From: Microcoleus vaginatus GB1-A2
GTDB lineage: Bacteria; Cyanobacteriota; Cyanobacteriia; Cyanobacteriales; Microcoleaceae
Direction: 5' to 3'
Length of the DNA: 40,000 nucleotides
NCBI GenBank assembly: GCA_040004015.1
Contig: JAMPKS010000007.1
Coordinates: forward strand, 79,756-119,755
Shown: positions 1,210 to 36,660 of the stretch, one piece after another
Position numbering within the stretch: the first letter of the stretch is position 1
Layout: the number at the start of each line of letters is the position of its first letter
Program-made: the position numbers and the translations under genes
Notes under the pieces: generated by a model
The model's database searches: none
What the model was told of the DNA's origin: nothing
Seen by the model: only the letters and a program-made list of their open reading frames with translations

Positions 1210-2230
1210 TACAGCACTTCCGGATGTTATGAGGTACAGTAGCAGCAATTAGTAAACCAGTTTTTAAGATGTTTCGGATTAATTAAGTCAAGAGCCACAG
1301 CAATTATCGTGTCAACCATTTTAGTGCTGGTTGGTGAAAACTGGATCAATAAAGATTTGAGTTGCGACCACCATAATTCAATTGGATTAAAATCAGGAGA
1401 GTATGGGGACAAACACAAGATGGAAGCACCCACCGCTTCAATCATAGGCTTAATTGAATCTACTTTATGCGCTGGTAAGTTATCCATCACTACTACTGCT
1501 CCCGACCACAATTTTGGCACTAAACATTTCTCCATAAACACCTCAAATGCTTGGCTATCCATCGAGTTGTCTATGGTCATTAATGCCACTACTTGCGTGA
1601 GACTAATTGCACCAATTACTGTGACTTTCTTACCTCGATAAAAAGGTTTGACCGCATAGGCTCTCGTTCCTTGTTGGGAACGTGCATGAGTTCTGGTTAA
1701 ACAAGCGTAATACTCCAGTCTCATCTAAAAATACTAGATTTTTTGGGTCGATATGCTTAACTTTTTCCCAATACTCTAACCTTAATTTCATGACTCTTTC
1801 AGTGCCGGCTTGGCTACTTCTCACTGTTTTTTTTTACGATTTAATCCCAACTTTTGTAAGGCATTACACATGGCTGTTCTACCCACCCAATTTCCCGTCT
1901 TCTGGGCAAATAACTCACACAATTCTAGTAAGGTTGCATCGGGATGTGCTGCCACTATTTCTCTCAACTCTGCTGTGGAATTATTCAAATGACTGTATCT
2001 CGGTTTCCCCCTGGGTAAGGGCTGTAAATTCCCCTCTATTTTTTGTTGCTTGACCAGTTTTTGAACTAAGCTTTTACTGACGGAAAATATCGCTGCTGTT
2101 TTTCTGATCGACAGCTTCTGATCTTGATGGGCTGCTACTATTTTTGTTCGCAAATCTACTGAATATGCTTTCATTGGTGTATTTTTTTTATCTATTCTTA
2201 TTGTACCTCATAACACCCGGAAGTGCTGTA
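1210..2230 (-). mobile_element. IS630/Tc1-mariner family insertion sequence (about 1.0 kb) with terminal inverted repeats and a TA target-site duplication
   Basis: The 26-bp IRs are CAGCACTTCCGGATGTTATGAGGTAC (1212-1237) and its reverse complement at 2203-2228, matching 25/26. Each is flanked by TA (1210-1211 and 2229-2230). The internal ORFs show IS630 hallmarks. Confidence 0.85.
1227..2174 (-). pseudogene. IS630-family DDE transposase split over three reading frames
   Basis: ORF 1821..2174 is the HTH N-terminus and ends in NRKKKQ* on an A9 run (T9 at 1827-1835 on the + strand). The next frame is -1 relative to it and continues with ...LEYWEKVKHIDPKNLVFLDETGV. A second frame change near 1700-1715 is needed to reach LTRTHARSQQGTRAY...DNLPAHK...YSPDFNPIELWWSQLK. 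The A9 site fits programmed -1 slippage, but the second shift looks like a genuine indel. Confidence 0.75.
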
Positions 2231-2418: not shown

Positions 2419-3858
2419 CTAGCCCCGGTTAAATTGGAAACGTCCAAAAGTGGGGACGATCGACCGCAGCGACAAGCTGCGGGGTTCTCGCACCAAAATC
2501 AAAGGCAGCAAGCCTACCAACCGCACAGCAGCCGAAAGGGCAAACAGTGCTCCCAAACTCATGCCCGGAAGTTCGACAAGAAAGCCGCCGGCGGTAGTTC
2601 CCAAAGCCCCTGCTACTCCCGAAACTGCTGCGGCGATCGCAAAATAAGTCGAGGGTTGCTCGATCGGCGCTATCTCCATTTGAATATTGTTAGTACAAAG
2701 CCCGATCGCCCCTAAAGTCGTTCCCCCCAGCAAGTGCAGCAGCGGCAGCCACACCCACACGGCAAACGGGTAATTGCCCGTACCCAACCACAGCAAAGGC
2801 GTTACAGCCACCACCAGCCCAACAGCAATTAGCAGGGGGCGATTTCCCCAGCGATCGGCCAACTTGCCCCAAAACATCAGCAGCAGTAGATTAGCCCCGG
2901 AACTGAAGCTGCTGTAAATCGTTACCAAACTCACATCCAAGCTTAATTCTTTCAGCAGGTAGATATTAAAAAATGGCGCGCTGAGATTAACTGCAAATGT
3001 CCACACGCTGAAGTAAAGAATAAACATTAAGAAATTAGAATCTTTCAGCACAGAAGGCACAAAATCTGTTATTTGCTTTTCTTTTTTCTTTGTAACTCGA
3101 TGCCTCTCTGCATCTTTTTTATATAGCTGGGGATTCACATCAACCATGAAGAATTGACACCCCAAACTAATCATTCCCGCCAAAACACCCACCAATAAAA
3201 CAATACCGTAGCCCAAAATTGGATCGGCGCCCCAAGTTGACACTCCCCATCCCATCAACGGCACTCCTAGCAAAGTTATGAGGCTCAGAGCACTGTTGCG
3301 AAAGCCAAAATAGCGTCCCCGCAAGCGGTGAGGAACCACGGCAGCCATCCAACTGAACCAGTTAGAATTGGCAAAAGCTCCCAGCACGCTAGCTGCTACG
3401 ACTGTTACCAGCGTCCATTGCAGCAGTTGGTGGGGGTCTGCGTACTGGGAACCCCAAACAATTGCCACCGCGAACATCAGCCACAGCAGCCGCGACACGC
3501 CGAATATCCCTAGGTTGTACCAGTGGCGGCTGGTTGTGCGGTCTGCGATGTAGGCTCCTAATGGCTGCAGGAGATTTACCACCATCGGAATAGCCGAGAA
3601 TATACCTATTTCCACGCTGCTGGCGCCGAGTTGCAGCAAGAAGTTGCTCAGCAGGACACCGCCGGTCGCCGACTCAAAGACAGTGGCAAAAACACCGTCT
3701 ACAGTTGAGGCTTTCAGGGTCGATCGCACCTCTTGTTTAGAAATTTTGAGAGCTGTTTTTGGAGATAGAACAAGCTTAAATATTTTCTTGTCTAGTATTT
3801 CTGGAGTCTGAAGAGATAGAGGTTCATTTAACTGTGCAACTGGTTCAAACATAGTCAT
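2419..3858 (-). CDS. MFS-type transporter (multi-pass membrane protein)
   Basis: The 479-aa ORF has about 12 hydrophobic segments and a central charged loop (YKKDAERHRVTKKKEKQ). The overlapping ORFs on the other strand look like composition artefacts. Confidence 0.75.
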   Translation of the reverse strand: MTMFEPVAQLNEPLSLQTPEILDKKIFKLVLSPKTALKISKQEVRSTLKASTVDGVFATVFESATGGVLLSNFLLQLGASSVEIGIFSAIPMVVNLLQPLGAYIADRTTSRHWYNLGIFGVSRLLWLMFAVAIVWGSQYADPHQLLQWTLVTVVAASVLGAFANSNWFSWMAAVVPHRLRGRYFGFRNSALSLITLLGVPLMGWGVSTWGADPILGYGIVLLVGVLAGMISLGCQFFMVDVNPQLYKKDAERHRVTKKKEKQITDFVPSVLKDSNFLMFILYFSVWTFAVNLSAPFFNIYLLKELSLDVSLVTIYSSFSSGANLLLLMFWGKLADRWGNRPLLIAVGLVVAVTPLLWLGTGNYPFAVWVWLPLLHLLGGTTLGAIGLCTNNIQMEIAPIEQPSTYFAIAAAVSGVAGALGTTAGGFLVELPGMSLGALFALSAAVRLVGLLPLILVREPRSLSLRSIVPTFGRFQFNRG

Positions 3859-4152
3859 AGGATTTTAGCTGTAGATTAAAGAATTGCCAAATCTTGGTTG
3901 GGCAAGGGTTTGAGGCTGGCTGGCCATTAAATTTTTTTTCACGCGCAGGTGTCAAGAAAATTTAATCTTGCTGCTAGAAATTGCTAAGCTAGCCTCTTAA
4001 GATAAAACCAGCCCGGCCTTCAAGGTGTTAGCTTGAAAGCTAGACTGGCACTTCCGGGTAATTGTTATTAATATAGATGGCAAGCGATCGCTGACACATC
4101 AACCGCTTGGGAGATATAAATTTGCTAATTGTACAAAAGTAGGTTTTAGGGC

Positions 4153-4581
4153 TTAACAAGGAAGCGAACTCAGCACTTCGCCTGCCAAAAATTGCTCGAA
4201 TTCCGCCTCAAACAAGTCGCCCCAAGGGCCAAAACAAATTTCGCGCGAGATCCTCCATTCCGCTCTCAAACCTTTACGGCTGGCTAAATCTATAGAATGT
4301 AAGACGATCGACTTGCCGAGTATAGCTGCTAACTCCAGCCCTCGGGCCAGGGCGGCAATTCCCTCTGGGGCGACAGCATCCACTTGCTGCATATCCACAA
4401 CAACTCCAAGGGCAGCATTTTCTAAAGCTTGCTCCAAATTATGTTGGAAATCTAGGACAGCTATGCCGCCGAGACAGCCCTTGGGTTGCAAAACAATGGT
4501 GTTGGATGCGGCGGTTTCTGGATCTAGCTGAGCGGTTGAACCCGAAACAACTGAAGGAATGAGGTTAGTGGCGGTCTTCAT
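4153..4581 (-). CDS. STAS-domain protein (anti-sigma-factor antagonist-like)
   Basis: The internal ATG at 4579-4581 is preceded by GGGGGAAGAAAG. The product MKTATNLIPSV...IVLQPKGCLGGIAVLDFQHNLEQALENAALGVVVDMQQVDAVAPEGIAALARGLELAAILGKSIVLHSI has a SpoIIAA/STAS-like architecture. The 96 codons upstream in the same frame belong to an IscB remnant. Confidence 0.65.
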   Translation of the reverse strand: MKTATNLIPSVVSGSTAQLDPETAASNTIVLQPKGCLGGIAVLDFQHNLEQALENAALGVVVDMQQVDAVAPEGIAALARGLELAAILGKSIVLHSIDLASRKGLRAEWRISREICFGPWGDLFEAEFEQFLAGEVLSSLPC

Positions 4582-8134: not shown

Positions 8135-8181
8135 TATCGCGTTCGATTGGCGGCTTGCGATCTTCAATTTTCGAGAGTTCT

Positions 8182-8232
8182 AAATGTTATGTGCAAGTCA
8201 TGTAATTAACGCGGGACTTACACATAACATTT
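8182..8232. repeat. 18-bp inverted repeat hairpin (AAATGTTATGTGCAAGTC / GACTTACACATAACATTT) with a 15-nt loop
   Basis: There is one mismatch in 18 bp. It lies 48 nt downstream of the guaA stop and immediately precedes the truncated GNAT reading frame. It may be the guaA terminator or a rearrangement scar. Confidence 0.6.
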
Positions 8233-8672
8233 ATATTTGCTATCGAAGACACAAATGTATGGGTGGCGATCGCCGCTGATTCAACCGTGGGTTTTGTAGC
8301 TGTGAAACTAGATTCCGAGTCGCGCATGGGTGAAATCTACATGGTAGCTGTCGATCCCGACTTTCAAGGTAACGGGATTGGCACTGCTTTGATGGAATTC
8401 GTTCTTATAGCAACAGCCCTATCGCTTAGTACATAAATAACTATCATGAATAGAGTCTAAAAGAAGCGTTTCATAAACGGTTTGATTCGGGTAGCATAAC
8501 TGTCAACAGTCAATTGTCAACTGTCAACTACTATAATTGGATGAAAGATGCTGGGATGGCTGTTGCTATGGTCGAGACTGGAGGCGATCGCGGTTATGAA
8601 AGAGCGCGTCGCACTTATCAAAAGCTGGGCTTCGGGCTGTTGCCGATCGCCCGATATTTCAAGAAGCTCTAG
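8206..8672 (+). pseudogene. GNAT-family N-acetyltransferase remnant, N-terminally truncated and split by an insertion of about 100-130 bp
   Basis: Frame 1 reads ...IEDTNVWVAIAADSTVGFVAVKLDSESRMGEIYMVAVDPDFQGNGIGTALMEF (motif A, Q/RxxGxG), then runs into unrelated sequence with a stop near 8436. After the insertion, WMKDAGMAVAMVETGGDRGYERARRTYQKLGFGLLPIARYFKKL* occupies 8538-8672. Confidence 0.65.
8498..8532. repeat. STRR heptamer array (AACTGTC-type, 5 units) inside the GNAT-disrupting insertion
   Basis: The units are AACTGTC AACAGTC AATTGTC AACTGTC AACTACT, the reverse complement of the array family at 16946-16987. Confidence 0.85.
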
Positions 8673-8693
8673 GTACGCAGGAATTGAAAGCCG

Positions 8694-9382: not shown

Positions 9383-12133
9383 ATGAAATTAAGTTTATTT
9401 CTGAGTGCATTAATCTTTGCCGAACTAGCAAATCTTTGCTGTTCGACTCCAGCCACAGCGCAGCTCGTTCCCGACACGACTTTAGGGGCAGAAAATTCTC
9501 TGGTTGCGCCGAATGTCGAGATTAAAGGAATTTCGGGCGATCGCGCAGAGGGGGGCGCGGTGCGCGGTGCTAATTTATTCCACAGTTTTCGAGAATTTAA
9601 CGTCCGCGAAGGCAGGGCAGTTTATTTTGCCAATCCGGCGGGTGTGGAAAATATTTTGACTAGGGTAACTGGCGGCAATCCTTCTAATATTTTGGGAACG
9701 ATCGGCGTTTTGGGAAATGCCAATTTATTTTTGCTCAATCCCAACGGTATTGTCTTCGGGCCGAAGGCGCGTTTGGATGTCGGGGGTGCTTTTTATGCCT
9801 CCACTGCGAGCAATTTGGTATTTAGAGGCGGATTGAATTTCAGTGCAGCTAATCCGCAAACTGCGCCGCTGTTAACTGTGAATATTCCTGTAGGTTTGCA
9901 GTTTCGGGGAACGGAAAAAGGAATTCTGAATGCAGGCGGCCAACTTGAGGTACAAAATGGCAGAATTTTGGCTTTAGTGGGGGGGCAAAATACGGCACCG
10001 GGAACGGCAGGAGTGACGGTTTCAGCGGCAGGAAGTTTGACTGCTGCTGATGGCAGAATTGAATTGGGAGGGTTGGCGGCGGCGGGAATTGTGGAATTGA
10101 GCGCTAACGGCTTGATTTTTCCCGATCGCGTGGCGCGCGCTGACGTATCCCTGAACAACCGCGCCAGCCTGAACGTGTCAGCTAGCGGCAGAGGCAGCAT
10201 TGCGATCGCCGCTCGAAATTTAGACATTGCTTCGCAGAGCTCTCTGAATGCGGGCGTGCTCGCGGGTTTCAATTTGGGGGGCGCTGTGCCCGGAAGCATC
10301 AGTATCAACGCTTCGGATGCGGTGGCGATCGCGAACAGCCGCGTCGAAACCGATGTTAAAAGCGGAGGTGTCGGCGATGCCGGGCCGATCGAAGTGAGGG
10401 CGGGTTCTCTGTTTGTCAGAGACGGTGCGGTGCTGCTGAGCGGCGTTCGGAAAGCCGACGCTCAAAACCCTGCCGGTCAAGGAAATGGGGGCAATATAGC
10501 TGTGGAAGCGCGCGATCGCGTTTCCCTGACTGGGAGCGATACTGCGATCGTCGCCAACATCGGCAACGGCGTTGTCGGCAGGAGCGGTAAAATTAGAATT
10601 ACTGCTAGCAGCGGCTCAATTTCCCTCGCTGACGGCGCTAAGCTGCGGACGGGTACGTCGGGACAGGGAAATGCCGGTCAAATTACCCTGCGCGCGGGAG
10701 ATGCAGTTTCCCTGACTGGCGGCAGCCGGATCGAAGCGGAAGTTGACAGCGGTGCTGTGGGGAACGGCGGCGATGTCAGCATTGTGGCGCGATCGCTCTC
10801 CCTGACAAACGGCGCGGCGCTGGTAACGCGCGCTAGCAAAGCAGAAGCCGAAAAGCCGGCCTCCCGGGGAAATGCGGGAAATGCGATTGTTAACGTGCGG
10901 GAAGGGGTGACGCTCGATCGCGGTTTTATTGTCACCGCAGTGGGAGATGAAGTGCTCGGAAAAAGCGGCGAAATTGTCATAAACGCGCGATCGCTGGCGC
11001 TCGGCAACGGTTCTCGCCTGGAAACGGCGACTTCTGGGGGGAACCCGGGTAATCGGTCGATCGCGGGCAATACTGACATCAGCGTGCGCGATCGCGTGGT
11101 GATTGCCGGCAGCAACAGCGCCAATCCCAGCGAGCGATCGGGCATTTTTGCCACTGTTACCGATCGGGCGCAAGGCGGTTTTGGCGGCAATATCAAGATC
11201 GCAGCCCGATCTGTTACTGTCAGAAACGGCGCCCAAATAACGGCAAGCAGCGAGACTTTTCAACCGCTGCAAACAGCGGACAATTTGCGGAACAATGCAG
11301 GCAGCATCAACATTAAAGCCGGCAACATCCGTTTAGAAACAGGCAGCATTGAAGCCAACACGCAAGCCGGGAAACGAGCGGAAATACAATTAGATTCAGC
11401 GGGATTGCAAATGCTGAGAAATAGCGCGATCGCTACTAATGCCGACAATACCAACGGCGGGAATATTACTCTCAGACTCAGTACATTAGCTGGATTAGGA
11501 AATAGCGACATTACAGCCAACGCCCGAAATGGAGGAGGGGGAGTAATATCGATTTCTTCTCAAGCAATTTTTGGGTCAAAATCCCAGACAAGACAGCAAG
11601 TAGAATCTCGATTGACAGGCGAGCAAATTCTCGATACAGAGTTCAGCCAGCGATTTTTGCCGACCAGCGATATCGTAGCAATTTCTCAAACAGACCCCAC
11701 CCTTAGCGGCACGGTAACAATCGTAACTCCTGATACTGACCCCGCATCTGGGTTAGTCGAATTGCCGGAAAACGTTGTCGATCCGGCGGCATTGATCGGG
11801 CAGAATCCCTGCGAAAGAGGGCGGGAAAGCGAATTCACAATTACCGGGCGCGGCGGCTTGCCTGCGAATCCCGGCGAAGCGTTAAATAGCGATAGCGTGC
11901 GAGTTAATTTAGTCGAACCCGCAGCACCGGCAAATTCGGGAAATACACTGCAAACGCAGCCGCTATCAAATATTGAGGGAGGGAATGGGGAAACTGCGCC
12001 AATAATTGTGGCTGCTAATGGGTGGATTCAAAACGAACGGGGGGAAGTAATTTTAGTTGGCTATAACCCTGCAGGTACGGGAACAAATCATCGAGTTCAA
12101 ACTCGGGCTGCTTGTGGGCAGCATCTGCGTTGA
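9383..12133 (+). CDS. TpsA-like secreted beta-helix protein with a filamentous-haemagglutinin N-terminal (TPS) domain
   Basis: It has a signal peptide (MKLSLFLSALIFAELANLCCSTPATAQ) followed by the TPS motifs NLFHSFREFNV, ENILTRVTGGNPSNILG and NANLFLLNPNGIVFG. Many G-N-x-G-x-I repeat turns follow, then a conserved C-terminal module (FTITGRGGLPANP...NGWIQNERGEVILVG). Confidence 0.85.
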   Translation: MKLSLFLSALIFAELANLCCSTPATAQLVPDTTLGAENSLVAPNVEIKGISGDRAEGGAVRGANLFHSFREFNVREGRAVYFANPAGVENILTRVTGGNPSNILGTIGVLGNANLFLLNPNGIVFGPKARLDVGGAFYASTASNLVFRGGLNFSAANPQTAPLLTVNIPVGLQFRGTEKGILNAGGQLEVQNGRILALVGGQNTAPGTAGVTVSAAGSLTAADGRIELGGLAAAGIVELSANGLIFPDRVARADVSLNNRASLNVSASGRGSIAIAARNLDIASQSSLNAGVLAGFNLGGAVPGSISINASDAVAIANSRVETDVKSGGVGDAGPIEVRAGSLFVRDGAVLLSGVRKADAQNPAGQGNGGNIAVEARDRVSLTGSDTAIVANIGNGVVGRSGKIRITASSGSISLADGAKLRTGTSGQGNAGQITLRAGDAVSLTGGSRIEAEVDSGAVGNGGDVSIVARSLSLTNGAALVTRASKAEAEKPASRGNAGNAIVNVREGVTLDRGFIVTAVGDEVLGKSGEIVINARSLALGNGSRLETATSGGNPGNRSIAGNTDISVRDRVVIAGSNSANPSERSGIFATVTDRAQGGFGGNIKIAARSVTVRNGAQITASSETFQPLQTADNLRNNAGSINIKAGNIRLETGSIEANTQAGKRAEIQLDSAGLQMLRNSAIATNADNTNGGNITLRLSTLAGLGNSDITANARNGGGGVISISSQAIFGSKSQTRQQVESRLTGEQILDTEFSQRFLPTSDIVAISQTDPTLSGTVTIVTPDTDPASGLVELPENVVDPAALIGQNPCERGRESEFTITGRGGLPANPGEALNSDSVRVNLVEPAAPANSGNTLQTQPLSNIEGGNGETAPIIVAANGWIQNERGEVILVGYNPAGTGTNHRVQTRAACGQHLR

Positions 12134-12139
12134 TTTACC

Positions 12140-12407
12140 GGAGTAGAATGTAAGGAACCCCACGCTTAAAAGCGGGGGCTTTTGGAAAGTCCGGCTCGTT
12201 CCGAGCGGTTCAAGAAAAAAGCCCAAACCTTACCAGAGACAGGATTAGACCTACGTTTCTTGAGTCATAATACCGGATAATGCGTCGCTAGTTTTCCGCT
12301 CTATTGCTAGTCGTTAAACATCTGTACAAGGGTTAAGGAAGTGCGACTAGCTCAACAAGCTCATGAAACCTTCTCGAAGCGAACTTTACCCCGAAAGGGA
12401 GGACATT
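12140..12407 (+). ncRNA. Candidate omega-RNA (IscB guide RNA scaffold)
   Basis: This 274-nt ORF-free stretch lies directly upstream of and abuts the iscB start, which is the canonical omega-RNA position. It has multiple local helices: CCCCACGC/GCGGGGG (12158-12178), CCGGCTCG/CGAGCGG (12191-12207), and GCTAGTCG (12306-12313) paired with CGACTAGC (12343-12350). The exact ends were not determined. Confidence 0.45.
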
Positions 12408-13685
12408 ATGTCTAATTTTGTTTTCATAATTGATGCGAACAAACGACCACTAACACCGATTCATCCGGGTTTTGCACGCAGACTTTTCAAGCAAAAAAAG
12501 GCTGCGATTTACCGCAAGTTTCCGTTTACTTTGATACTCAAAGAATCACGCTCCGATCTGACCGTACCCGACTTGCAACTCAAGATAGATCCTGGTTCTA
12601 GGGTAACAGGTTTTGCGATACTCAACGGCGCAAAAGTTATTTGGGCGGCAGAATTAACGCATAGAGGTCAGGCTATTAAAAATGCTTTACTCTCACGCAG
12701 TCAACTACGAAGAGTCCGACGAAATCGACACACTCGTTATCGTCAACCAAGATTCTTAAATCGTACCTGTCCTCAAGGTTGGCTAGCCCCCAGTCTACAA
12801 CATCGTGTCGAAACCACGCTTACCTGGGTCAACAAACTTATTAAGTTTGCGCCGACAAACTCAATCACTCAAGAACTGGTACGGTTCGACTTACAACAAC
12901 TTGCTCACCCTGAAATCTCAGGGATTGAATACCAACAAGGAACACTTTTAGGATATGAAGTCCGCGAATACCTTCTTGAAGTTTGGGAGAGGAAATGCGC
13001 TTATTGTGGCATTAAAAATGTACCATTACAGGTAGAACATATCCACCCCAAGGCCAAAGGTGGTAGTAACCGAATTTCTAACCTGTGTCTTGCTTGCGAT
13101 ACTTGCAACAATAATAAAGGTACTCAGGATATCAAGCAATTCCTAGCCAAGAAGCCTGATGTTCTCAAACGTATCCAAGCACAAAGAAAACGCCCTCTCA
13201 AGGATGCGACTGCGGTCAATTCTACCCGCTGGACGTTACTCAATCGACTAAAAGAAACAGGACTCCCCGTGGCTACGGGGTCGGGAGGTCGAACTAAGTT
13301 TAATCGAACTCGCTTACAACTGCCTAAATCTCATTGGTTGGATGCGGCGTGTGTAGGCAAGGTCGAAGAGTTGAATGTACTAACTTCTCAACCGCTGTTA
13401 ATCAAAGCAATGGGACACGGAACGCGACAGATGTGCGGTACAGATAAATTTGGATTCCCAATTCGTCATAAATCAAGAAAGCAAATTCATTTCTGTTTTC
13501 AAACTGGCGATATCGTCAGCGCGACAGTCACCGCAGGAAAGAAAATTGGCTGTTATACGGGACGAGTTCTTTGCCGCGCATCCGGTTCGTTTGATATTGC
13601 TACAACCACGGGAAGAGTGGCAGGGATTAGTCACAAATATTGCCGTGCAATTCACAAAAAAGATGGTTATTCCTATGGATTCTAG
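12408..13685 (+). CDS. iscB: IscB, an OMEGA-type RNA-guided nuclease (PLMP-like N-terminus, split RuvC with HNH insertion, C-terminal TAM-interaction-like domain)
   Basis: The ATG at 12408 is preceded by a GGGAGG RBS. Motifs are VFIIDANKRPLTPIHP (PLMP-type), LKIDPGSRVTGFAIL (RuvC-I Asp), ITQELVRFD (RuvC-II Glu), CAYCG...LQVEHIHPKAKGGSNRISNLCLACDTCNNNKG (HNH with a Cys4 arrangement) and KSHWLDAACVG (RuvC-III His/Asp). The product is 425 aa. Confidence 0.85.
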   Translation: MSNFVFIIDANKRPLTPIHPGFARRLFKQKKAAIYRKFPFTLILKESRSDLTVPDLQLKIDPGSRVTGFAILNGAKVIWAAELTHRGQAIKNALLSRSQLRRVRRNRHTRYRQPRFLNRTCPQGWLAPSLQHRVETTLTWVNKLIKFAPTNSITQELVRFDLQQLAHPEISGIEYQQGTLLGYEVREYLLEVWERKCAYCGIKNVPLQVEHIHPKAKGGSNRISNLCLACDTCNNNKGTQDIKQFLAKKPDVLKRIQAQRKRPLKDATAVNSTRWTLLNRLKETGLPVATGSGGRTKFNRTRLQLPKSHWLDAACVGKVEELNVLTSQPLLIKAMGHGTRQMCGTDKFGFPIRHKSRKQIHFCFQTGDIVSATVTAGKKIGCYTGRVLCRASGSFDIATTTGRVAGISHKYCRAIHKKDGYSYGF

Positions 13686-13840
13686 TTGTAGGCGACTGAA
13701 GTCGCTGCCGCTTTCCTCCCCATGTCTACAGCCAGGGGCTTCTCGCTCGTTTTTCGGTGCTTTTTCAACCGCAGATATCAGCGGATTAACACAAATTAAC
13801 GCTGATAGAGTTCGATCTGTTATGATGGAGCAACTAATAA

Positions 13841-14019
13841 TCTCCGGGCTTTTGTGTTGAGCGAAGGTGGCATCGCCTGCGCTGGTATGATGCTAATGGT
13901 AATTGGATTGCCGCGACTGCCGAAGGAGCCGGGGCAGCAAGCCGAACAGCAGCGCTGTTCGGGCAGAAGGTTTAGCCGAAAGGTTGAGGGCGATGGGGCT
14001 CGATCGAGATGAACTTTAG
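13841..14019 (+). pseudogene. 3' remnant of a Uma2 (DUF820) family endonuclease gene, frameshifted
   Basis: One frame reads RWHRLRWYDANGNWIAATAE. A second frame ends in AVRAEGLAERLRAMGLDRDEL* (stop at 14017-14019). This matches my recollection of the usual cyanobacterial Uma2 tail (WLRWYD..G.WI.T..E ... AERLAA.LRALGIDPD). No 5' part is present. Confidence 0.5.
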
Positions 14020-17866: not shown

Positions 17867-20401
17867 GTGGCGATCGACTGCCAAACATTTTATACCCGAT
17901 GCCTATTTTTAGCGACTGCAACGCTGCTGCTGTGGGCGTCTCCATCTGGGCAGATATTTTTCTGTCCTCAAATCTCTCTGGCACAAACCCCAACAGTTCG
18001 CGAAACCAACAAATCGAAAGCAGAACAGCTTTATCAAGCAGCTACCGAGCAATTAAATAAAGGTCAACTCCGCCCAGCTTTGAAAACATTCGAGCAGGTT
18101 TTGGCAACTCTCAGGGAAATGAGCGCTCCGCAAGCAGAAGCAGCAACGCTAAACCAAATTGGTTTGGTTTACAACAATCTAGGCGAGTCGCAAAAAGCGC
18201 TCAATTACTATCAGCAAGCCCTGACAATTTTTCAACAGCACCAAGCTCGGAAAGAGCAAGGCACAACCCTGACAAACATAGCAGCAGTTTACCGCAATCT
18301 CGGTCAGTATCAAAAAGCTTTGGAATTTTACCAGCAAGCTTTGGCACTCCGCCGCGCAGTCCAAGATGCGCTCGGTGAAGCGATAACTCTCAATAACATG
18401 GCGGCCGTTTACGACAATCTCGGTCAGTATAAAAAATCTCTGGAATTTTACCAGCAAGCTTTGGCAATTTTTGATAAAGTAAAGGACGGTAGAGGTAAAG
18501 GAACTACTCTCAATAATATTGGCTTGAATTACAGCAATCAAGGTGCATATACCGAAGCTTTATCTTACTACAAACAAGCGCTGGAGATTTTGGAAGCAGC
18601 GGGCGATCGCATGGGAGTAGGTCGAATTTTAACTAATATCGGTTTTGCTTACAGCAATGTCGCTGAATATCAAAAAGCTTTGGCATCTTTAGAACAAGCT
18701 TTGGCAATTCGGCGGGAAATCGGCGATCGCCCCGGAGAAGCTGTCACCCTCGATCGCATGGGAACTGTTCACCGCCAGCAAAAGTCCGATCGAACAGCGC
18801 TGCAATTTTACCAGCAAGCTTTAACCATTTTTCGGGAAGTAAATAACAGCCCAGGTGCCGGCTATACTCTCAGCAATATCGGCGCAACTTTGTTAAAAAG
18901 CGACCGCTTTGAGGAGGCAACAAAGCAATTAATGACCGCAGTGGAAGTTTGGGAATCCCTGCGGCCGGGATTGACTGACGAAAATAAAGTATCCCTGTTT
19001 GAAAAACAAGCTGAAACTTACAGTTTTTTGCAGCAGGCTTTGATTGCTCAAAACCAAATAGAAGCCGCTTTAGAAATTGCGGAAAGAGGCAGGGCGCGAG
19101 CATTTGCCGAGCTGTTGGCTTCTCGAATGGGAACTGAGAATTCAGAACAATTAGCTGTGCCAAAACCGCCAAATTTAGCGCAAATCAGACGGATAGCTGC
19201 GGAGCAAAAAGCGACATTAATTGAATATTCAATTGTTGATGAAAAACTTTATGTCTGGGCGATAGCCCCAAGCGGCGATATTGCTTTCCGCCAAATTGAT
19301 ACCAGCAATTTAGATATTTCCCTGGCTGATGTGGCGAGGAATACGCTAGTAGCTGCTGCTACGGGCAGAACTCGCGGTTCTGCACCGGATGCCCGCGCCG
19401 CAGAAAGTGCAAATAATTCGGCAGGGGTTTCAACTCGAAGACTCAACCGCCGCCTGCATCAAACTTACAAATTATTGATAGAACCGCTCGCCAATATTTT
19501 GCCAAAAAATGAGGGCGACCGGGTAATTTTCATCCCCCAAGGCGTGCTGTTTTTAATTCCATTTGCAGCTTTACAAGATGCAGCGGGCAATTATATAATA
19601 GAAAAACATACTGTCTCAATTGCACCTTCAATTCAAGTATTGGATTTAACTCGCCAGCATCGGCAGCGGCTGCGATCGCACCCGAGTTCGCAGTTATTGG
19701 TAGTCGGAAATCCGACAATGCCCAGCATTCGATCGATCCCGGAGGAGGCGCCGACACCTTTGAGTCCTTTGCCCGGGGCCGAACAGGAAGCGATCGCAAT
19801 TGCGAGAATACTCCAAACGCAAGCTATTGTCGGCAAGGATGCTACAGAAAGGGCGATCGTGCAGAAGATGCCGCAAGCGAGAATCATTCATCTAGCGACT
19901 CACGGATTGCTCAACGAATTGCAAGATATGGATTTGGGAGTACCGGGGGCGATCGCGCTTGCACCCGATCGCACCCCCCCAGCCGGGGCAACCACAGGGG
20001 GATTGCCCCTACATCAAGGGGGGGCTATGACTTCAACTACCGCCGATTCAGGGGGGGGTGCAGGTGACGGTTTGCTGACTTCTGGGGAGATTTTCAACCT
20101 GAAGCTGAACGCGGAATTGGTGGTACTGAGCGCTTGCAATACCGGTAGGGGAACGATTTCGGGAGATGGAGTGCTGGGATTGTCGCGATCGTTTATTGCT
20201 GCGGGAGTTTCCAGTATTGTAGTATCGCTGTGGTTTGTGCCCGACGCACCGACAGCGGATTTGATGACAGAATTTTACCGTCAATTGCAGCCGAATTCCG
20301 ATAAAGCGGCAGCGCTGCGGCAGGCAATGTTAGTGACGATGCGACGGCACCCTCAACCGAGCGATTGGGCGGCTTTTACCTTGATTGGGGAAGCGGATTA
20401 A
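17867..20401 (+). CDS. TPR-repeat CHAT-domain protease with a signal peptide
   Basis: The start is GTG. The N-terminus LFLATATLLLWASP is followed by at least 7 clear 40-aa TPR units (LNNIGLVYNNLGESQKALNYYQQAL type). The CHAT dyad is IIHLATHG and LVVLSACNTGRG, and the C-terminus is DWAAFTLIGEAD. Confidence 0.85.
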   Translation: MAIDCQTFYTRCLFLATATLLLWASPSGQIFFCPQISLAQTPTVRETNKSKAEQLYQAATEQLNKGQLRPALKTFEQVLATLREMSAPQAEAATLNQIGLVYNNLGESQKALNYYQQALTIFQQHQARKEQGTTLTNIAAVYRNLGQYQKALEFYQQALALRRAVQDALGEAITLNNMAAVYDNLGQYKKSLEFYQQALAIFDKVKDGRGKGTTLNNIGLNYSNQGAYTEALSYYKQALEILEAAGDRMGVGRILTNIGFAYSNVAEYQKALASLEQALAIRREIGDRPGEAVTLDRMGTVHRQQKSDRTALQFYQQALTIFREVNNSPGAGYTLSNIGATLLKSDRFEEATKQLMTAVEVWESLRPGLTDENKVSLFEKQAETYSFLQQALIAQNQIEAALEIAERGRARAFAELLASRMGTENSEQLAVPKPPNLAQIRRIAAEQKATLIEYSIVDEKLYVWAIAPSGDIAFRQIDTSNLDISLADVARNTLVAAATGRTRGSAPDARAAESANNSAGVSTRRLNRRLHQTYKLLIEPLANILPKNEGDRVIFIPQGVLFLIPFAALQDAAGNYIIEKHTVSIAPSIQVLDLTRQHRQRLRSHPSSQLLVVGNPTMPSIRSIPEEAPTPLSPLPGAEQEAIAIARILQTQAIVGKDATERAIVQKMPQARIIHLATHGLLNELQDMDLGVPGAIALAPDRTPPAGATTGGLPLHQGGAMTSTTADSGGGAGDGLLTSGEIFNLKLNAELVVLSACNTGRGTISGDGVLGLSRSFIAAGVSSIVVSLWFVPDAPTADLMTEFYRQLQPNSDKAAALRQAMLVTMRRHPQPSDWAAFTLIGEAD

Positions 20402-21121: not shown

Positions 21122-21153
21122 TTTCTTCTCTAGTCTATTTCTTCTCTAGTCTA
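21122..21153. repeat. Tandem 16-bp duplication (TTTCTTCTCTAGTCTA x2) covering the csx1 stop codon
   Basis: Read directly from the sequence. The second copy contains the TAG stop of csx1 (21151-21153, minus strand). Confidence 0.85.
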
Positions 21154-22416
21154 TTTATCTGGCAATAGTTCCTCACTAATTGTCTTGAATTTAGGAGATA
21201 GTGATAGAACTTTTTTCTTAATACTACCAGCAGTTTGAGGTTGATTATTCATGCCACAATGAGCAATATCATTACGCAACTCTGCCATTTGACTCCAGAC
21301 ACTAGCAAGTTCATTTGCTTGTGGCAAAGCTGCAAACTTTTCATTGCAACGGCTATCAAGAGGAGGGCGAGGATGAGGTCTATTCTGTTCAACTGCATTA
21401 TTTAGAGCAGCTTCTACATACTTGCGACCTCTTGAATAATCGAACATGGGTTCACCAAATCGCAGCGCTAAGATAGAAACTAACCACTCACGTGCTAAAG
21501 TGACGGCTTGTACTAATTGATCTCGGTCAATGTACCATTGAATCATCTGCAATTGTAGCCGCAGATTCTGACTCAATGCTGCTTCATCTTTAGGATTTTC
21601 GAGAGCAAATTGTCCGTACTGTTGAACTACCTTATCTGATAAAAGTGAAAATGGTTTTGCTCTATCGGCAAAACTCGGTGCAGCTTTTTGGAGAATTTCT
21701 TCTAACTTAGTAGCAGATTGCATCGTCTCAATAGGTCTAGTTACACTTAAAGCTAGAGAGATATTCTCAATTGCTTCAACCGAATTCTTAAGATTGTCTC
21801 TAATTTGTCTGCTAGATGGAATCTCGCTTAATTCAAAAGTTGAGGGGATAGCACTTTTAAGTAAATTAGCGAGTTCTCGTCCGTCTCCTATTTTGACAAA
21901 TTGATTAGTGGCTGTAATCCAATCAATCATTGACACAAATTCAGATAGGTCAATGACAGGCGCTGGTACGTTATTTTTGCTGTCGCTTAACTCAGGAGCA
22001 CCATAGTAAATAGCTGCAATTGTTACGTTTTTAGCCGCTTTGAGGTAAGCAGCGAATAAAAAGACGAGAAAAGGGAGCGATCGGAGTCCGTGAGTAATAT
22101 CAAAAATTACGCAATCGTCTTCATCAACATATTGAGTGATGATTTTAAAAGTTTCCCACATTTCCTCCGTAGTTCTACCAGTTGGGATATCAATCGGCTT
22201 GATACGCGCATCTCCTAGTGCTTCTAATAGAGGCCAAGTAGTTGCTTTTGCTTCTTCTGTGACGCACACTAACATAGTGTCATATTCACAAAACTGGTGC
22301 AGTGCTTCAGCAAATACTTGACCCTTGTAGGTGCGATTGCTATGGCTGTAAATAGTTTCTCTTGGATATTTACCTAAAAATGTAATGATTTTTGTAATGA
22401 TTTTTGTTTGACTCAT
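21151..22416 (-). CDS. csx1: CARF-HEPN effector RNase of the Csx1/Csm6 family
   Basis: The N-terminus is CARF-like (ITFLGKYPRETIY...VIFDITHGLRSLPFL). The C-terminal HEPN motif is Rx4H (ELRNDIAHCG). It is the last gene of the type III operon. Confidence 0.75.
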   Translation of the reverse strand: MSQTKIITKIITFLGKYPRETIYSHSNRTYKGQVFAEALHQFCEYDTMLVCVTEEAKATTWPLLEALGDARIKPIDIPTGRTTEEMWETFKIITQYVDEDDCVIFDITHGLRSLPFLVFLFAAYLKAAKNVTIAAIYYGAPELSDSKNNVPAPVIDLSEFVSMIDWITATNQFVKIGDGRELANLLKSAIPSTFELSEIPSSRQIRDNLKNSVEAIENISLALSVTRPIETMQSATKLEEILQKAAPSFADRAKPFSLLSDKVVQQYGQFALENPKDEAALSQNLRLQLQMIQWYIDRDQLVQAVTLAREWLVSILALRFGEPMFDYSRGRKYVEAALNNAVEQNRPHPRPPLDSRCNEKFAALPQANELASVWSQMAELRNDIAHCGMNNQPQTAGSIKKKVLSLSPKFKTISEELLPDK

Positions 22417-22427
22417 TGCTAATCTCC

Positions 22428-23192
22428 TTAATCTAGTTTAACCTTGGTTTGACCCATTCCCAAACGGGTTTTAATTCCCGTACCCGCATACTGACTGTAT
22501 TGAACCAGCAAATTAGCAACATTAGCCAGCAAGGAATCAGTGCGGTAAGGAATTTGCAGCGTTACTTGGCCAACAAACCCGTTTACATATCCTCTCGGCA
22601 ACTGCTGCGATCGCGTTTGAATCTTGTGGTGTTTTAATAAAACAGCCTGACTCAAATAAGCGAGTAATTCATCACTCCCCAAATAAACAGGAGCAAAGTG
22701 ATTCCACCTTTCTAACCAACTGCGAAACATCTGATTGGGAACCGGTAAAGCTAAGTGCGCCGAACCTTGTGCGAAAGCAGTCGGAGTTGTAAATTTAAGG
22801 TCGAAGCGGCGGACGGGTTCTGGTTCATTGGCTACAAGTTCTGTGTAAAGTTGTTCGTAGCTGGTGATTTCATCTTCTCGATTAATTATATCAAATTTAG
22901 CCCCGAGAAATTCGAGAGATGCTGAGAGATTCAAGGAGGCGATCGCTTTTGCAGCATTTTCCTGCAGGCCAGACAAAGACAAGGTATAAAACTCATCTGG
23001 TGTAAACGTCTGAAAATCTTTTGAAACTTGGTAGAAACCCTGAATTCCTGAAAAACTTACAGAAGGTACGGTCTCACTCCCGACTTCTAATCCTAATCGG
23101 CGATGCAACTCCTTCACCAATTCTAAATGGTAAGCGCGCGGCAAAAGAGCGGGTTCGGATACAGTTAATGTCCAGGTAGAACGAATTAGCAT
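22428..23192 (-). CDS. cas6: Cas6 pre-crRNA endoribonuclease
   Basis: The 254-aa ORF has RAMP architecture and a C-terminal glycine-rich loop (YAGTGIKTRLGMGQ). Its start overlaps the csm5 stop. Confidence 0.75.
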   Translation of the reverse strand: MLIRSTWTLTVSEPALLPRAYHLELVKELHRRLGLEVGSETVPSVSFSGIQGFYQVSKDFQTFTPDEFYTLSLSGLQENAAKAIASLNLSASLEFLGAKFDIINREDEITSYEQLYTELVANEPEPVRRFDLKFTTPTAFAQGSAHLALPVPNQMFRSWLERWNHFAPVYLGSDELLAYLSQAVLLKHHKIQTRSQQLPRGYVNGFVGQVTLQIPYRTDSLLANVANLLVQYSQYAGTGIKTRLGMGQTKVKLD

Positions 23193-24472
23193 GGCTTAAA
23201 CTTTACCCATCCAGGTACATATTTGATATCGCCCTTATGATCTACAACAGTCCGCCGCGATTTTGGTGCTTCAAAACCCGGTGCTTTGATTCCGCAAGTA
23301 TCACGGATTTCTTCTATCAATTTCTCATCAAGACATAAACTAACCGTAGTTCCCAACATTCCGCTTGCCCAACCAATCCTTAAGCTATAAGGGCACTCAG
23401 TCGGTTCGTATAGTTCCTGAATATAGCTGAAATTTAAGTCTTTACCTTGAGAGCGATTATTTTTGATATCCTCCCAATAATCATGTTCAGCATCCCATTG
23501 CTCTTGAGCGAAATCTCGACAAATTTTCAGCAGTTCGTCCAGATTTTTAAACGGTATTTTCATCCCTTCGCTGTGACTGAACCATTGTAGCATTTCCGTA
23601 TCCAGACTCAGGGTGAATTCAGTCTGTACGTTGCGAACCATTTCGGCATAAATGGAAGCGCGATATTTGGCTTTATAATCTGGGAAGCGGCTGGAGACAA
23701 TAACTTCAGCAACTATAGGTAAGTTGAAAAATACATTTTTTCCTTGCTTAGTAACTTTTTTGACTTCTAGCAAAGGCTGAGAATCGGTGACTTTAATGGC
23801 TCGCATGAAGTCCGTGTTAGGCCCAATTTTGCTTTTGACCCATCGCCCTTGATATGATAGAGCAAAATCAGTGAATAAACTATCCATGAATAGTTCATCA
23901 TCTAAAAATTTTTGTTTGTGTTTATTTGCGACTTCCCCTCTACCAAGTTTTTCTCGTAATTGGATTTCTATGACACTAAGGCTGGCAGATTCTGGGAGTT
24001 GATATTTGTTTTCATGTTTGAGGAGGTGGTAGGCGATCGCAGTTCTAATTGCCCCTTTAATCGACGAACCGGGAATATACAATTGTCCCATGCCGTTGCG
24101 AATCATCGGACGCAAATCTGTCACCGGATTTTCAGTCCATTTATGACTGACGGCAATTTCAGGAAAAATGCGATCGCCATCTTCACCTGTAGCATTCCAC
24201 CATTGATCGCCCAAGACATCTTCAAGCAATTTAGTAATATTTTTGCGCTCTTCAATAGTACGAATATAATCGTCCAATCGACCCCCTTGATACAGCACTT
24301 TTGCTAAAGCTTCCCGATCTGGGAGATAAACCCTTTTAGATGTCTGGACATATTCAAAAGGATTCAAGCGCGAGACTTCTGAGCCGATATGTAAAATAGG
24401 ACTTGTTAGCTGAATCCGCTTTGATTCGGAAGCTTCAGGTTTTTTGATGGCAAGGTGAGAAGTAGCAGTCAT
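23186..24472 (-). CDS. csm5: Csm5 (Cas7-family RAMP subunit)
   Basis: It contains LTSPILHIGSEV... and YIPGSSIKGAIRTAI. Its size and position after csm4 fit Csm5. Confidence 0.75.
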   Translation of the reverse strand: MTATSHLAIKKPEASESKRIQLTSPILHIGSEVSRLNPFEYVQTSKRVYLPDREALAKVLYQGGRLDDYIRTIEERKNITKLLEDVLGDQWWNATGEDGDRIFPEIAVSHKWTENPVTDLRPMIRNGMGQLYIPGSSIKGAIRTAIAYHLLKHENKYQLPESASLSVIEIQLREKLGRGEVANKHKQKFLDDELFMDSLFTDFALSYQGRWVKSKIGPNTDFMRAIKVTDSQPLLEVKKVTKQGKNVFFNLPIVAEVIVSSRFPDYKAKYRASIYAEMVRNVQTEFTLSLDTEMLQWFSHSEGMKIPFKNLDELLKICRDFAQEQWDAEHDYWEDIKNNRSQGKDLNFSYIQELYEPTECPYSLRIGWASGMLGTTVSLCLDEKLIEEIRDTCGIKAPGFEAPKSRRTVVDHKGDIKYVPGWVKFKPC

Positions 24473-24477
24473 GATAT

Positions 24478-25545
24478 TTATTCACTCTTGACTTTGATAG
24501 GAAGACTCAAACTAATGCCGCTGCGATAAATTGGATGATTCGTAAATCCTAACGGGGTTACATCAGCTAGTTTGCCGATAGGTTCAGAGGAAAAAACAGA
24601 ACCTTCAGCAAACATTCTAATTGACTTGCGACGTAACTGATACCCAGAAGGAGAAGAGGATACCCAACCGCCTCTTTCTATAATTTCATAACTGGCCTTT
24701 TCATCTGCGATCACCTCGTGCAGTTTTTGTTCGTCATTTGTCCAAAACAAACTCAAAAGAGTGTAGTAACTGTTGTCTTTAAAATCTACTACTTGTTGCC
24801 AAGTCGGACATAAAGAATCCCACTTAGCTTTAAACTGTCCGCTTCCGCTAGAACGTTCCCCACCTAAACCTTCATCTCCCAGCCACTTCAAGACAGCTTG
24901 TAGGTCATGTTCCAAGGTTTTATTGACGCAGGGAAAGTGGATGAGAAAATATAAGCCTGAATGGGCTTGGCTATCTTGTTGAAATTGTACGATGCCTGTG
25001 TGATAAAAGTTAGTTGCTCTAGTTACTCTGTCTATCGCGACTTTGGGCAGCGGTCTCTTTTTGTAACAGGTTCCGTAAGCAAATGCTCTCGCTTGATTTA
25101 AGTTTCCCTGACTTTTGCCATCATTAGTATAAGTAATGAGTTCGTCGCTATCTGCAAACCCTTCGCCCTGATACCACCGCTGCCAAATTTCCAAAGGCAA
25201 GTAATTGAGTTTTTTCTTGTAAGTCTTAAAAAAATTCAAATCGTCATCTGGGTAATTCCAGGGAAATCGGAGCGGTTTCGGCAAATAGTAGGTAATTTTA
25301 TCTGCTACTTGCTGATAGATAAAAGTAGAACTGATGCAAAATGGTGGCGGGTTTTCCCGAGCGCAAAACTGTTGCAACAATTCGGAAACTGCCTGAGATC
25401 CAAACATTCGAGCATACACCGCAATCAACGCACTAAATAGCGTATCCGATCGCACTCGTTCGCTAGTTTCCTCAATCCCAATACCTAATTCTCCGAAGTG
25501 TGCAGTCCCTAAAAATTGTAGTCGCACAAGTTTCCAGACGCTCAT
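24478..25545 (-). CDS. csm4: Csm4 (Cas5-family RAMP subunit)
   Basis: It contains LQFLGTAHFGE...VRSDTLFSALI and a glycine loop (GLGGERSSGSGQF). Its start overlaps the csm3 stop (ATGA). Confidence 0.8.
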   Translation of the reverse strand: MSVWKLVRLQFLGTAHFGELGIGIEETSERVRSDTLFSALIAVYARMFGSQAVSELLQQFCARENPPPFCISSTFIYQQVADKITYYLPKPLRFPWNYPDDDLNFFKTYKKKLNYLPLEIWQRWYQGEGFADSDELITYTNDGKSQGNLNQARAFAYGTCYKKRPLPKVAIDRVTRATNFYHTGIVQFQQDSQAHSGLYFLIHFPCVNKTLEHDLQAVLKWLGDEGLGGERSSGSGQFKAKWDSLCPTWQQVVDFKDNSYYTLLSLFWTNDEQKLHEVIADEKASYEIIERGGWVSSSPSGYQLRRKSIRMFAEGSVFSSEPIGKLADVTPLGFTNHPIYRSGISLSLPIKVKSE

Positions 25546-26537
25546 TTTGTTTCTCCGGTCAATTTTTTTTGTTGAATCCTGTCACTCAACGTGCCAAAGT
25601 TTTTGAGAAGTGCTGATGTATCATCTGGTTCCAGGATGGGAGCTCGAAAGTCAACACCATCTTCTGTTATCCGCCGATATTGCTCCAAGTCGCGCCAGAA
25701 ACACTTAAAGTTTTCAAACCGGACTTTTCCGTAACCCCGCGATCCGTGTCCCCCCAAAGCATCATCTTCGAGGAGGGAAAGCCCGATCGCGATATTCTGC
25801 AAATCCTCTATAGCTTGAGTGACATTATCCGCGCGATCGCCATCAGCTTCGACAGTATAAACTAACTCAAACTTGAATTTTGCACCTCTGGGAACTCGTT
25901 CGACTTGGCGGGGATTGGCAGCAGCAGTTACGCGATCAATACCGTTCTCAAATTTCCACTCAGTCATGTAAAGTCCGGTGTCTACTCGCTTAAGTTGCTC
26001 GGCAGATTCAGAGATGAGATGACAATCGCGTACAATTAACCGTGCCGGAGAATTGCGACCTTTTTTCACCAGGCTGTGTACCACACCATTTATAGGGCGA
26101 GTAACAAAACTACCGTTGCTTTCTACTCGCTCCAAACCTTCGGCTTGTGCCCGTGAAGTTTCAACCCAAAAATTAGAGCCGCCAGTAGAGCCAAACAACC
26201 GACTAATAGGACAAGTCAGCGCACCTTGATAACAAATCGGCTGTTGGTTAATTTCACTGTATCCATCCACCAGATCGTCGCTTTCATAACGATAAGTATT
26301 GCTCCCTCCAGCTCGATTCAAAGGTTTATTGTGAAACCGCTCCAAAATAGAGCGCAATTTGCCTTTAATTGAAGAACCGGGAAGGTATGGAAACTGGGTA
26401 ATAGGGTCACGGACAACGGCTTTATCTAGACCGCCGATGTCGAGTTTTTCTCCACCACCCCCAATGTGCATTCCTGTCTCTAATAGCAAGGTGCTTTCTA
26501 GACGAAATTTACCGAGTAGTTGTTTGTGTTGCAGCAT
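25542..26537 (-). CDS. csm3: Csm3 (Cas7 backbone/target RNase subunit), unusually long at 331 aa
   Basis: It contains ETGMHIGGGGEKLDIGGLDKAVVRDPITQFPYLPGSSIKGKLRS (with the catalytic-loop Asp), RLFGSTGG, RLIVRD and GGHGSRGYG. Confidence 0.85.
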   Translation of the reverse strand: MLQHKQLLGKFRLESTLLLETGMHIGGGGEKLDIGGLDKAVVRDPITQFPYLPGSSIKGKLRSILERFHNKPLNRAGGSNTYRYESDDLVDGYSEINQQPICYQGALTCPISRLFGSTGGSNFWVETSRAQAEGLERVESNGSFVTRPINGVVHSLVKKGRNSPARLIVRDCHLISESAEQLKRVDTGLYMTEWKFENGIDRVTAAANPRQVERVPRGAKFKFELVYTVEADGDRADNVTQAIEDLQNIAIGLSLLEDDALGGHGSRGYGKVRFENFKCFWRDLEQYRRITEDGVDFRAPILEPDDTSALLKNFGTLSDRIQQKKLTGETK

Positions 26538-26539
26538 GA

Positions 26540-36321: not shown

Positions 36322-36345
36322 TTTTTATAATTCCTCAGTCCTTAA

Positions 36346-36436
36346 TCATAGGTCATTAGTCATTGGTCATTAGTTATTAGTCATTGGTGCTTAGTCACTG
36401 GCGATCGATCATCGGTCATTACTTGTTAGTTATAGC
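36346..36436. repeat. STRR heptamer array (TCATTAG/TCATTGG, about 13 units)
   Basis: The units read TCATAGG TCATTAG TCATTGG TCATTAG TTATTAG TCATTGG TGCTTAG TCACTGG and continue in the same pattern. Confidence 0.9.
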
Positions 36437-36585: not shown

Positions 36586-36660
36586 CCATTACCTATTACC
36601 TATTACCTAACTCATAACTAATGACTGATAACTAATGACTAATGACTGATGACTGATTAG
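36586..36660. repeat. STRR heptamer array in the opposite orientation (CTATTAC / ATGACTG / ATAACTA, about 10 units)
   Basis: The units read CCATTAC CTATTAC CTATTAC CTAACTC ATAACTA ATGACTG ATAACTA ATGACTA ATGACTG ATGACTG. The TAATGAC core is the reverse complement of the GTCATTA core at 36346-36436. The array overlaps the stop of the upstream gene. Confidence 0.9.

Follow-up and report, generated by a model that had tools for sequence, protein, structure and literature searches.

An IscB/HEARO transposable element in Microcoleus vaginatus, probably a stranded yet nuclease-competent copy behind a tpsA-like gene

What is the iscB gene of Microcoleus vaginatus GB1-A2: a working part of a transposable element, a nuclease taken over by its host, a relic, or a restriction-type enzyme of another kind? 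We addressed this question in a window of 40,000 nucleotides from this cyanobacterium (GenBank assembly GCA_040004015.1, contig JAMPKS010000007.1, forward strand positions 79,756 to 119,755), in which a preliminary description had placed an apparently intact IscB RNA-guided nuclease with a candidate omega-RNA leader at 12134-13840. We hold with high confidence that the locus carries a 1.61-kb non-autonomous ISC element of the IS200/IS605 superfamily, made up of iscB and a HEARO RNA and located in a chromosome of the M. vaginatus complex; this copy is probably stranded yet still nuclease-competent. Protein, RNA, ends and flanking pattern were observed directly in the sequences; for the functional steps our reading draws on the IscB systems of Geobacillus stearothermophilus (GstIscB), OgeuIscB and Ktedonobacter racemifer.

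The iscB gene occupies 12408-13685 on the + strand and encodes a protein of 425 amino acids in which a PLMP motif, RuvC-I, an arginine-rich bridge helix, RuvC-II, HNH, RuvC-III and a C-terminal domain follow one another. A Shine-Dalgarno-like GGGAGG, read from the sequence, lies at 12397-12402 (+), 5 nt ahead of the ATG. The protein begins MSNFVF, and an in-frame upstream ATG at 12363 was ruled out as the start because all 16 relatives examined share the MSN start. Profile and structure comparisons agree with the motifs listed in the preliminary description. The NCBIfam equivalog model NF040563 (guided_IscB, "RNA-guided endonuclease IscB") matches residues 5-317 with 452.6 bits, 2.6 times its cutoff of 175, and Pfam identifies RRXRR at residues 5-178 (1.9e-68) and HNH at residues 197-239 (2.7e-11). 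A sequence search of the PDB returned only IscB, IsrB and small Cas9 structures (TbaIscB at 4e-37, OgeuIscB at 2e-23), and a family profile lifted the OgeuIscB match to 3e-36.

In both pairwise and family alignments, the split RuvC catalytic residues D61, E156, H309 and D312 align with D61, E193, H340 and D343 of OgeuIscB. An HNH insertion separates RuvC-II from RuvC-III, with a catalytic H211 that corresponds to H247; these five OgeuIscB residues have been named as catalytic, with the PLMP motif of that protein at positions 14-17 (PMC9640706). At the same positions the window protein reads PLTP, a motif in which P14 is shared by 16 of 17 sequences and L15 and P17 by all 17, while position 16 varies among T, N, S, A and D. 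The zinc-binding cysteine pairs C197/C200 and C230/C233 (CxxC at 197-200 and 230-233) are conserved. The bridge helix, residues 97-119 (RSQLRRVRRNRHTRYRQPRFLNR), falls within the RRXRR match between RuvC-I and RuvC-II, and 47 relatives share without exception its R97, R101, R104, R105, R107, R110, R112 and R119. Residues 345-425, which include KKDGYSY at 417-423, are conserved within the family. Relative to its relatives, the window gene has a dN/dS (ratio of nonsynonymous to synonymous substitution rates) of 0.07-0.26, from which, at the sequence level, the family is under purifying selection overall.

The 274 nt between the stop codon of the upstream gene and the iscB ATG contain a full-length match to HEARO (Rfam RF02033), at 12150-12389 (+). 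With 136 bits it exceeds the gathering score of 83 (E 2.6e-28); it covers model positions 1-211 of 211 and ends 18 nt ahead of the iscB ATG on the same strand. Chance accounts neither for this match nor for the motifs of the protein. HEARO was later shown to be the omega-RNA of IscB (PMC9755519; bioRxiv 10.1101/2023.03.14.532601), so that the covariance-model check suggested in the preliminary description came out in favor of an omega-RNA scaffold in the leader. It is the sole Rfam family above its gathering score in the entire window. In 17 of 20 related loci, too, HEARO precedes iscB, and an RNAalifold consensus of 17 HEARO sequences contains compensatory double changes in 27 of its 36 pairs. 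Compared with the Rfam consensus, the omega-RNA of the Microcoleus subfamily has an extra hairpin of ~27 nt in the second stem region, at ~12186-12215 in the window (CCGGCTCG...CGAGCGG).

Some related loci depart from this arrangement. At one of them (L013), matches to group II intron domain V (2780-2857 and 1125-1202) stand in place of HEARO upstream of iscB. At another (L016), a second HEARO lies on the opposite strand (2042-2258, -), ~500 nt upstream of the first, a layout whose sequence suggests two head-to-head elements. In the window we also considered translational masking of iscB through pairing of 12239-12253 with the start region 12407-12421 (14/15 complementarity, G-U pairs allowed). 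This idea was rejected: the complementarity was no better than in shuffled controls and is unconserved beyond the closest subfamily.

Protein and leader together bear on the names under which such genes circulate. JGI labels many relatives of 75-91% identity "5-methylcytosine-specific restriction endonuclease McrA", and these names and the Pfam HNH match would fit a stand-alone HNH/McrA-type restriction or homing endonuclease preceded by an unrelated structured leader. We give this reading almost no credence, since on the sequence evidence it is already contradicted. The HNH domain sits inside a split RuvC with the D/E/H/D residues, the N-terminus (residues 5-178) is of the RRXRR/PLMP type, the curated IscB equivalog model is matched at 2.6 times its cutoff, and the leader belongs to the IscB guide-RNA family. 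Moreover, a protein of 99% identity is entered at NCBI as "RNA-guided endonuclease IscB [Microcoleus vaginatus GB2-A3]"; the McrA label is a mislabel. Exact-sequence look-ups of the window TpsA and IscB proteins matched no record.

The extent of the element was defined by comparison with copies at other sites. Relatives were taken from 80 loci found in a scan with one genome per species, mostly from Microcoleus and other filamentous cyanobacteria, and including the iscB gene of K. racemifer, which is 56% identical. Against each of the 14 closest loci, homology to the window starts at 12150 (to within 3 nt by blastn) and stops at 13754-13763. Beyond this shared segment the flanks are unrelated between sites, the 14 loci and a copy in M. 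vaginatus GB2-A3 representing 12 other independent insertion sites. The element thus runs from 12150 to ~13759, with its 3' end at ~13756-13759; it begins GTAAGGAACCCC and finishes CTCGCTCGTTTTTCGGTG, and its first nucleotide is also the one that aligns with position 1 of the HEARO model. The scaffold doubles as a transposon end, the right end (RE) in TnpA terms. The span of 12134-13840 given in the preliminary description contains the element and overshoots it on both sides; 13760-13840, for example, is host flank and part of a decayed Uma2 gene.

Both ends carry subterminal imperfect hairpins without terminal inverted repeats, a trait of ISC and IS200/IS605 elements. On the omega-RNA side, CCCCACGCTTAAAAGCGGGGGCTT at 12158-12181 (+; family D2) has a DNA fold of -8.4 kcal/mol (z -2.8) and compensatory stem changes among copies. 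At the other end, the left end (LE) in TnpA terms, CCCCATGTCTACAGCCAGGGGCTT at 13718-13741 (+) is an imperfect palindrome present in all family copies, although its own fold energy is unexceptional (z 0.25). The two are direct repeats of each other with 71% identity, and this direct orientation is as expected for ends of the IS200/IS605 type. A further small hairpin in the DNA fold, GCGAC-TGAA-GTCGC at 13692-13705 (+), directly follows the iscB stop. It has equivalents from L001 to L078 and is retained across subfamilies by compensatory stem changes (GCGAC/GTCGC, GCGGT/ACCGC, GCAGA/TCTGC); it may represent the 3' end of the mRNA or a piece of the transposon end.

The comparison of copies, which the preliminary description had proposed as a way to define LE, RE and the target-adjacent motif (TAM), also gave a consistent flank. 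At the far junction, the iscB strand reads GTGA at 12/12 other independent sites, followed by A, G, T or C, and most other subfamilies have ATGA or GTGA there. This agrees with the published ISC target sites N/ATGA and GT/GA (slash, junction; PMC4810608) and with the GstIscB TAM TTCAT, which is ATGAA on the iscB strand (bioRxiv 10.1101/2023.03.14.532601). We infer from these flanks a candidate family TAM of GTGA plus a purine-biased base, or RTGA(R) on the iscB strand. The family thus conforms to a target motif of 4-5 nt, from which the window copy deviates: it reads G/GTGCT at 13756-13761 (+), a variant or mutated junction. There is no target-site duplication around it.

In a second Microcoleus/Planktothrix subfamily (L016, L017, L021-L024, L026, L027, L030, L058 and L077) the element ends ...CCAAGGGGGAAGA(A/C)AG, ~75-80 nt past the iscB stop, and is followed by ATGA. 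The ATG of this flank often opens a host open reading frame (ORF), for example MNLTPESKVLVQGIT in three of these loci (L026, L027 and L030), so that the element sits exactly at a start codon and places a G-rich, Shine-Dalgarno-like run ahead of that codon.

Copies of the element are both close in sequence and scattered in location. Microcoleus sp. F10-A1 has a 99.0% identical copy (L001) with different flanks, and M. vaginatus GB2-A3 has a 99.3% identical copy (L091) at a third site; the window copy differs from these by only 11-16 nt in 1610. To judge by these sequences, the family has clearly been mobile recently in the M. vaginatus complex and is still moving. The arrangement of the window recurs on a metagenome contig (L082), with 99.2% identity over tpsA and the inserted element. 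The GB2-A3 copy is also preceded, at a distance of ~2 kb, by a TnpB-only element (OrfB_IS605/Cas12f-like, L091 620-1837), indicating that both OMEGA nuclease types coexist in this lineage.

How would such an element obtain its guide? The gene in front of it is a tpsA-like gene with a TPS secretion domain (9383-12133, +; Pfam TPS 7.9e-49), co-oriented with iscB, whose stop codon at 12131-12133 lies 16 nt before the element. In published IscB elements the guide is located outside the transposon end, beyond RE (bioRxiv 10.1101/2023.03.14.532601), and homology among copies starts at 12150; we therefore read the intervening 16 nt, TTTACCGGAGTAGAAT at 12134-12149 (+), as the guide-encoding flank. 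It occurs once in the window, lies outside the element and abuts the 5' side of the scaffold. The preliminary description was right that the 5' flank would supply the guide; this flank follows the tpsA stop and is not the 3' coding end of tpsA. No promoter-like or terminator-like site on the + strand was found between tpsA and the element, and tpsA most likely supplies the transcript with guide and omega-RNA. The ~99% identical copies in F10-A1 and GB2-A3 likewise sit 3 and 144 nt after co-oriented ORFs.

The activity we propose would proceed as follows. Read-through from tpsA would yield an RNA that has the 16-nt guide, TTTACCGGAGTAGAAT, at its head and, folded from the next ~240 nt, the omega-RNA scaffold. 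IscB would be translated from the same read-through transcript and would then bind the guide RNA, and the complex would be expected to cut double-stranded DNA that matches the guide and bears the RTGA(R) TAM on the iscB strand. In the life cycle of the element, the target would be the donor joint that remains once a TnpA encoded elsewhere has excised it, and cutting of this joint may promote re-copying of the element. Such a read-through model fits the orientation bias and the guide-outside-RE arrangement described for IscB elements (bioRxiv 10.1101/2023.03.14.532601).

For the window copy itself this cycle is probably impaired, as indicated by what has happened next to it. In other Microcoleus genomes the orthologous locus lacks the element: in L090 the order is tpsB, a 200-aa gene, tpsA, a spacer of ~650 bp, Uma2 (269 aa) and CHAT, and L083/84 are similar. 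In the window, ~1.03 kb of this ancestral DNA, comprising intergenic sequence and the 5' half of Uma2, is missing beside the element. What is left of Uma2 is a decayed 3' remnant outside the element at 13815-14016 (+), 55 nt past its end, recovered by tblastn with the 269-aa L090 protein (E 2e-10). The matches fall in three different frames, at residues 150-165, 198-213 and 243-269; residues 1-149 are missing, and the remnant has internal deletions and stops. The truncated Uma2 of the preliminary description is therefore real. Its multiple lesions mean that the truncation alone gives no date for the insertion, and the relatively recent insertion suggested in the preliminary description is supported instead by the orthologous loci without the element, which favor an insertion younger than those lineage splits.

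The tpsA 3' end resembles a diverged orthologue, so that the deletion may lie on either side of the element. We considered a scenario in which the element entered Uma2 and DNA to its left was then deleted, which would make the 45 nt left of the element Uma2-derived, and set it aside because the alignments were unconvincing. Nucleotide homology to the tpsA orthologues stops at 12104, ~45 nt before the element, and the last ~9 codons of tpsA (12105-12133) differ from those of four orthologues (L081, L086, L088 and L090), reading QTRAACGQHLR before the stop in place of QTPATNTCRMRQ.

The GTGC junction and the ~1-kb ancestral deletion together make it probable that the window copy is stranded: by this analysis it would be poorly excised and its donor joint poorly recognized, while the nuclease itself would remain competent. 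A variant of this account, in which the stranded copy is co-transcribed behind tpsA, the deletion arose from IscB breakage and misrepair or from recombination between copies, and the element is at an early stage of immobilization or domestication, appears rather improbable to us.

The same junction and deletion could instead mark a dead relic, with no functional omega-RNA and no activity, whose ORF is intact only through recent insertion. The 11-16 differences in 1610 nt mean that integrity reflects youth; the TAM site is changed and 1 kb of adjoining DNA has been lost; sister copies with catalytic substitutions show that the family decays; and a promoter of its own was not detected. Against this, the protein keeps every catalytic and zinc-binding residue, the ribosome-binding site is in place and the HEARO structure is complete, and a co-oriented tpsA that ends 16 nt upstream without a terminator-like site is the normal setting for IscB omega-RNA production. 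We consider a relic unlikely on balance, and retain the reading of a stranded but nuclease-competent copy.

The position of this copy also raises the matter of domestication, which the preliminary description had offered alongside non-autonomy in view of the missing transposase. A Pfam search of the 35 largest ORFs with 120 aa or more in the 40-kb window found no Y1 transposase; three small ORFs that lie within tpsA or within the 36657-37985 ORF were outside this search. A six-frame scan of the window for the HUH..Y motif likewise found no TnpA. The absence of TnpA thus stands, and the element is non-autonomous. This does not make it special: tnpA is found near only ~1.5% of iscB genes (bioRxiv 10.1101/2023.03.14.532601), so that lacking it is the ordinary state, and ISC elements, cyanobacterial ones included, were described as non-autonomous in 2016 (PMC4810608).

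A domesticated IscB, captured for a host role such as regulation or defense linked to tpsA/CHAT and no longer transposon-like, would accord with the lack of a nearby tnpA, with the non-canonical GTGC, with the intact iscB ORF, and with a location inside a conserved tpsA-Uma2-CHAT neighborhood where the copy would be co-transcribed with tpsA. Yet the first of these is the rule for iscB, and the copy is too young for an intact ORF to reveal selection at this site. Both transposon ends are intact, copies of 99.0-99.3% identity occur at two other unrelated sites, and orthologous Microcoleus loci are without the element. The catalytic residues are kept, with no inactivation of the kind seen in known domesticated relatives. 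Domestication is therefore very improbable, and this part of the preliminary description found no support.

Several observations weigh against our preferred reading of a mobile-element copy with a competent nuclease. Cleavage, guide length and TAM are deduced by homology and from flank statistics. A C-terminal TAM-interacting (TI) beta-barrel is expected but unmatched: residues 345-425 have no sequence similarity to solved IscB structures, the C-terminal 110 residues gave zero matches in the PDB sequence search, and an AlphaFold2 model built with 47 close relatives (mean predicted local distance difference test score 43.9, predicted template modeling score 0.29) is unusable for the TI fold. 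Not all family members are active, given that two sister copies carry catalytic substitutions, D61H in L003 and H309Y in L007. In each of these the iscB ORF is full length (3001-4275) despite the altered RuvC residue, which suggests, from sequence, nuclease-dead variants inside the same family. No TnpA was found in the 80 loci with their 3-kb flanks, by a crude motif scan that is no proof of absence. Finally, an exact empty site was not found, as the candidate loci (L083/84, L090, L081 and L086-89) either lack the element and are diverged intergenically or have contigs that end just after tpsA; the junction is thus placed no more finely than the conserved GTG(A).

Further features of the window lie outside the element. 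In two orthologous loci a tpsB transporter gene (ShlB/POTRA) is located between guaA and tpsA (L081 1468-4339, L090 133-2154). The window has only 551 bp in its place (8137-8687), with acetyltransferase-like fragments and AACTGTC heptamer repeats (8498-8529), leaving tpsA without an adjacent transporter. Other heptamer tandem repeats, TCATTGG and ACTAATG, occur at 36338-36420 and 36608-36657; such short tandemly repeated heptamers are common in filamentous cyanobacteria. A second TPR-CHAT gene (17867-20401, +) follows 0.9 kb downstream of the first, and a DDE_3 transposase fragment is present at 1227-1724 (-). The window also holds a type III CRISPR-Cas effector operon (21151-29354, -) with Cas10/Csm1 (27027-29354), Csm2, RAMP proteins, Csm4 and Cas6 (22428-23192), adjoined by a divergent WYL-domain gene (29796-31217, +). 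No CRISPR array was detected in the window by Tandem Repeats Finder.

What does the locus add? The novelty attributed to it in the preliminary description was overrated: HEARO/IscB is a curated family, ISC elements from cyanobacteria have been on record since 2016 (PMC4810608), and NCBI already applies the name IscB to a protein of 99% identity. Neither protein nor RNA is new, and the same holds for the lack of tnpA and the occurrence in a cyanobacterium; this is a real, ordinary, already known kind of element, a textbook IscB/HEARO element of little import beyond annotation. The statement that no cyanobacterial IscB has been experimentally characterized agrees with our literature searches, which found none, an absence of evidence only. 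The modest practical value of the locus resides in the native guide TTTACCGGAGTAGAAT, the exact ends and the flank-derived TAM candidate for a compact IscB of 425 aa, and the still-moving family in the M. vaginatus complex may be used for finding a cognate TnpA or for testing a cyanobacterial IscB. The changed junction, with the deletion beside it, is of minor interest as a small experiment of nature on TAM loss in such elements.

The closest known systems include the ISC2 transposons of Kapitonov et al. 2016 (PMC4810608), with ISC2-1_GS of the cyanobacterium Geitlerinema sp. PCC 7105 and the ISC2 families of K. racemifer among them. The element shares with them a length of ~1.3-1.7 kb, a single iscB without tnpA, a 5' end beginning GT(A/C)A, subterminal imperfect hairpins, insertion next to (A/G)TGA without target duplication, and several near-identical copies per genome or clade. 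It differs in host genus and sequence family, in the GTGC at its target and in the ~1-kb deletion alongside. Its RNA matches HEARO RF02033 at full length with a score beyond the gathering threshold, precedes an HNH/RuvC ORF in the same orientation and has covarying helices; it departs from the Rfam consensus in the additional ~27-nt hairpin of the Microcoleus subfamily. The protein has the domain order, catalytic residues and PLMP positions (14-17) of OgeuIscB (PDB 7XHT, 7UTN and 8CSZ) and K. racemifer IscB. Unlike OgeuIscB it has 425 rather than 496 aa and PLTP in place of PLMP, and its C-terminal ~80 residues lack detectable sequence similarity to the solved IscB structures. In its organization it parallels GstIscB (Meers et al., bioRxiv 10.1101/2023.03.14.532601), with an omega-RNA bounded by the transposon end, a guide outside it, a co-oriented upstream gene and a TAM (TTCAT, or ATGAA on the iscB strand) that resembles RTGA(R). 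For GstIscB, donor-joint cleavage and re-copying have been shown; for the Microcoleus element these steps, like mobilization in trans by TnpA, are predictions from that likeness.

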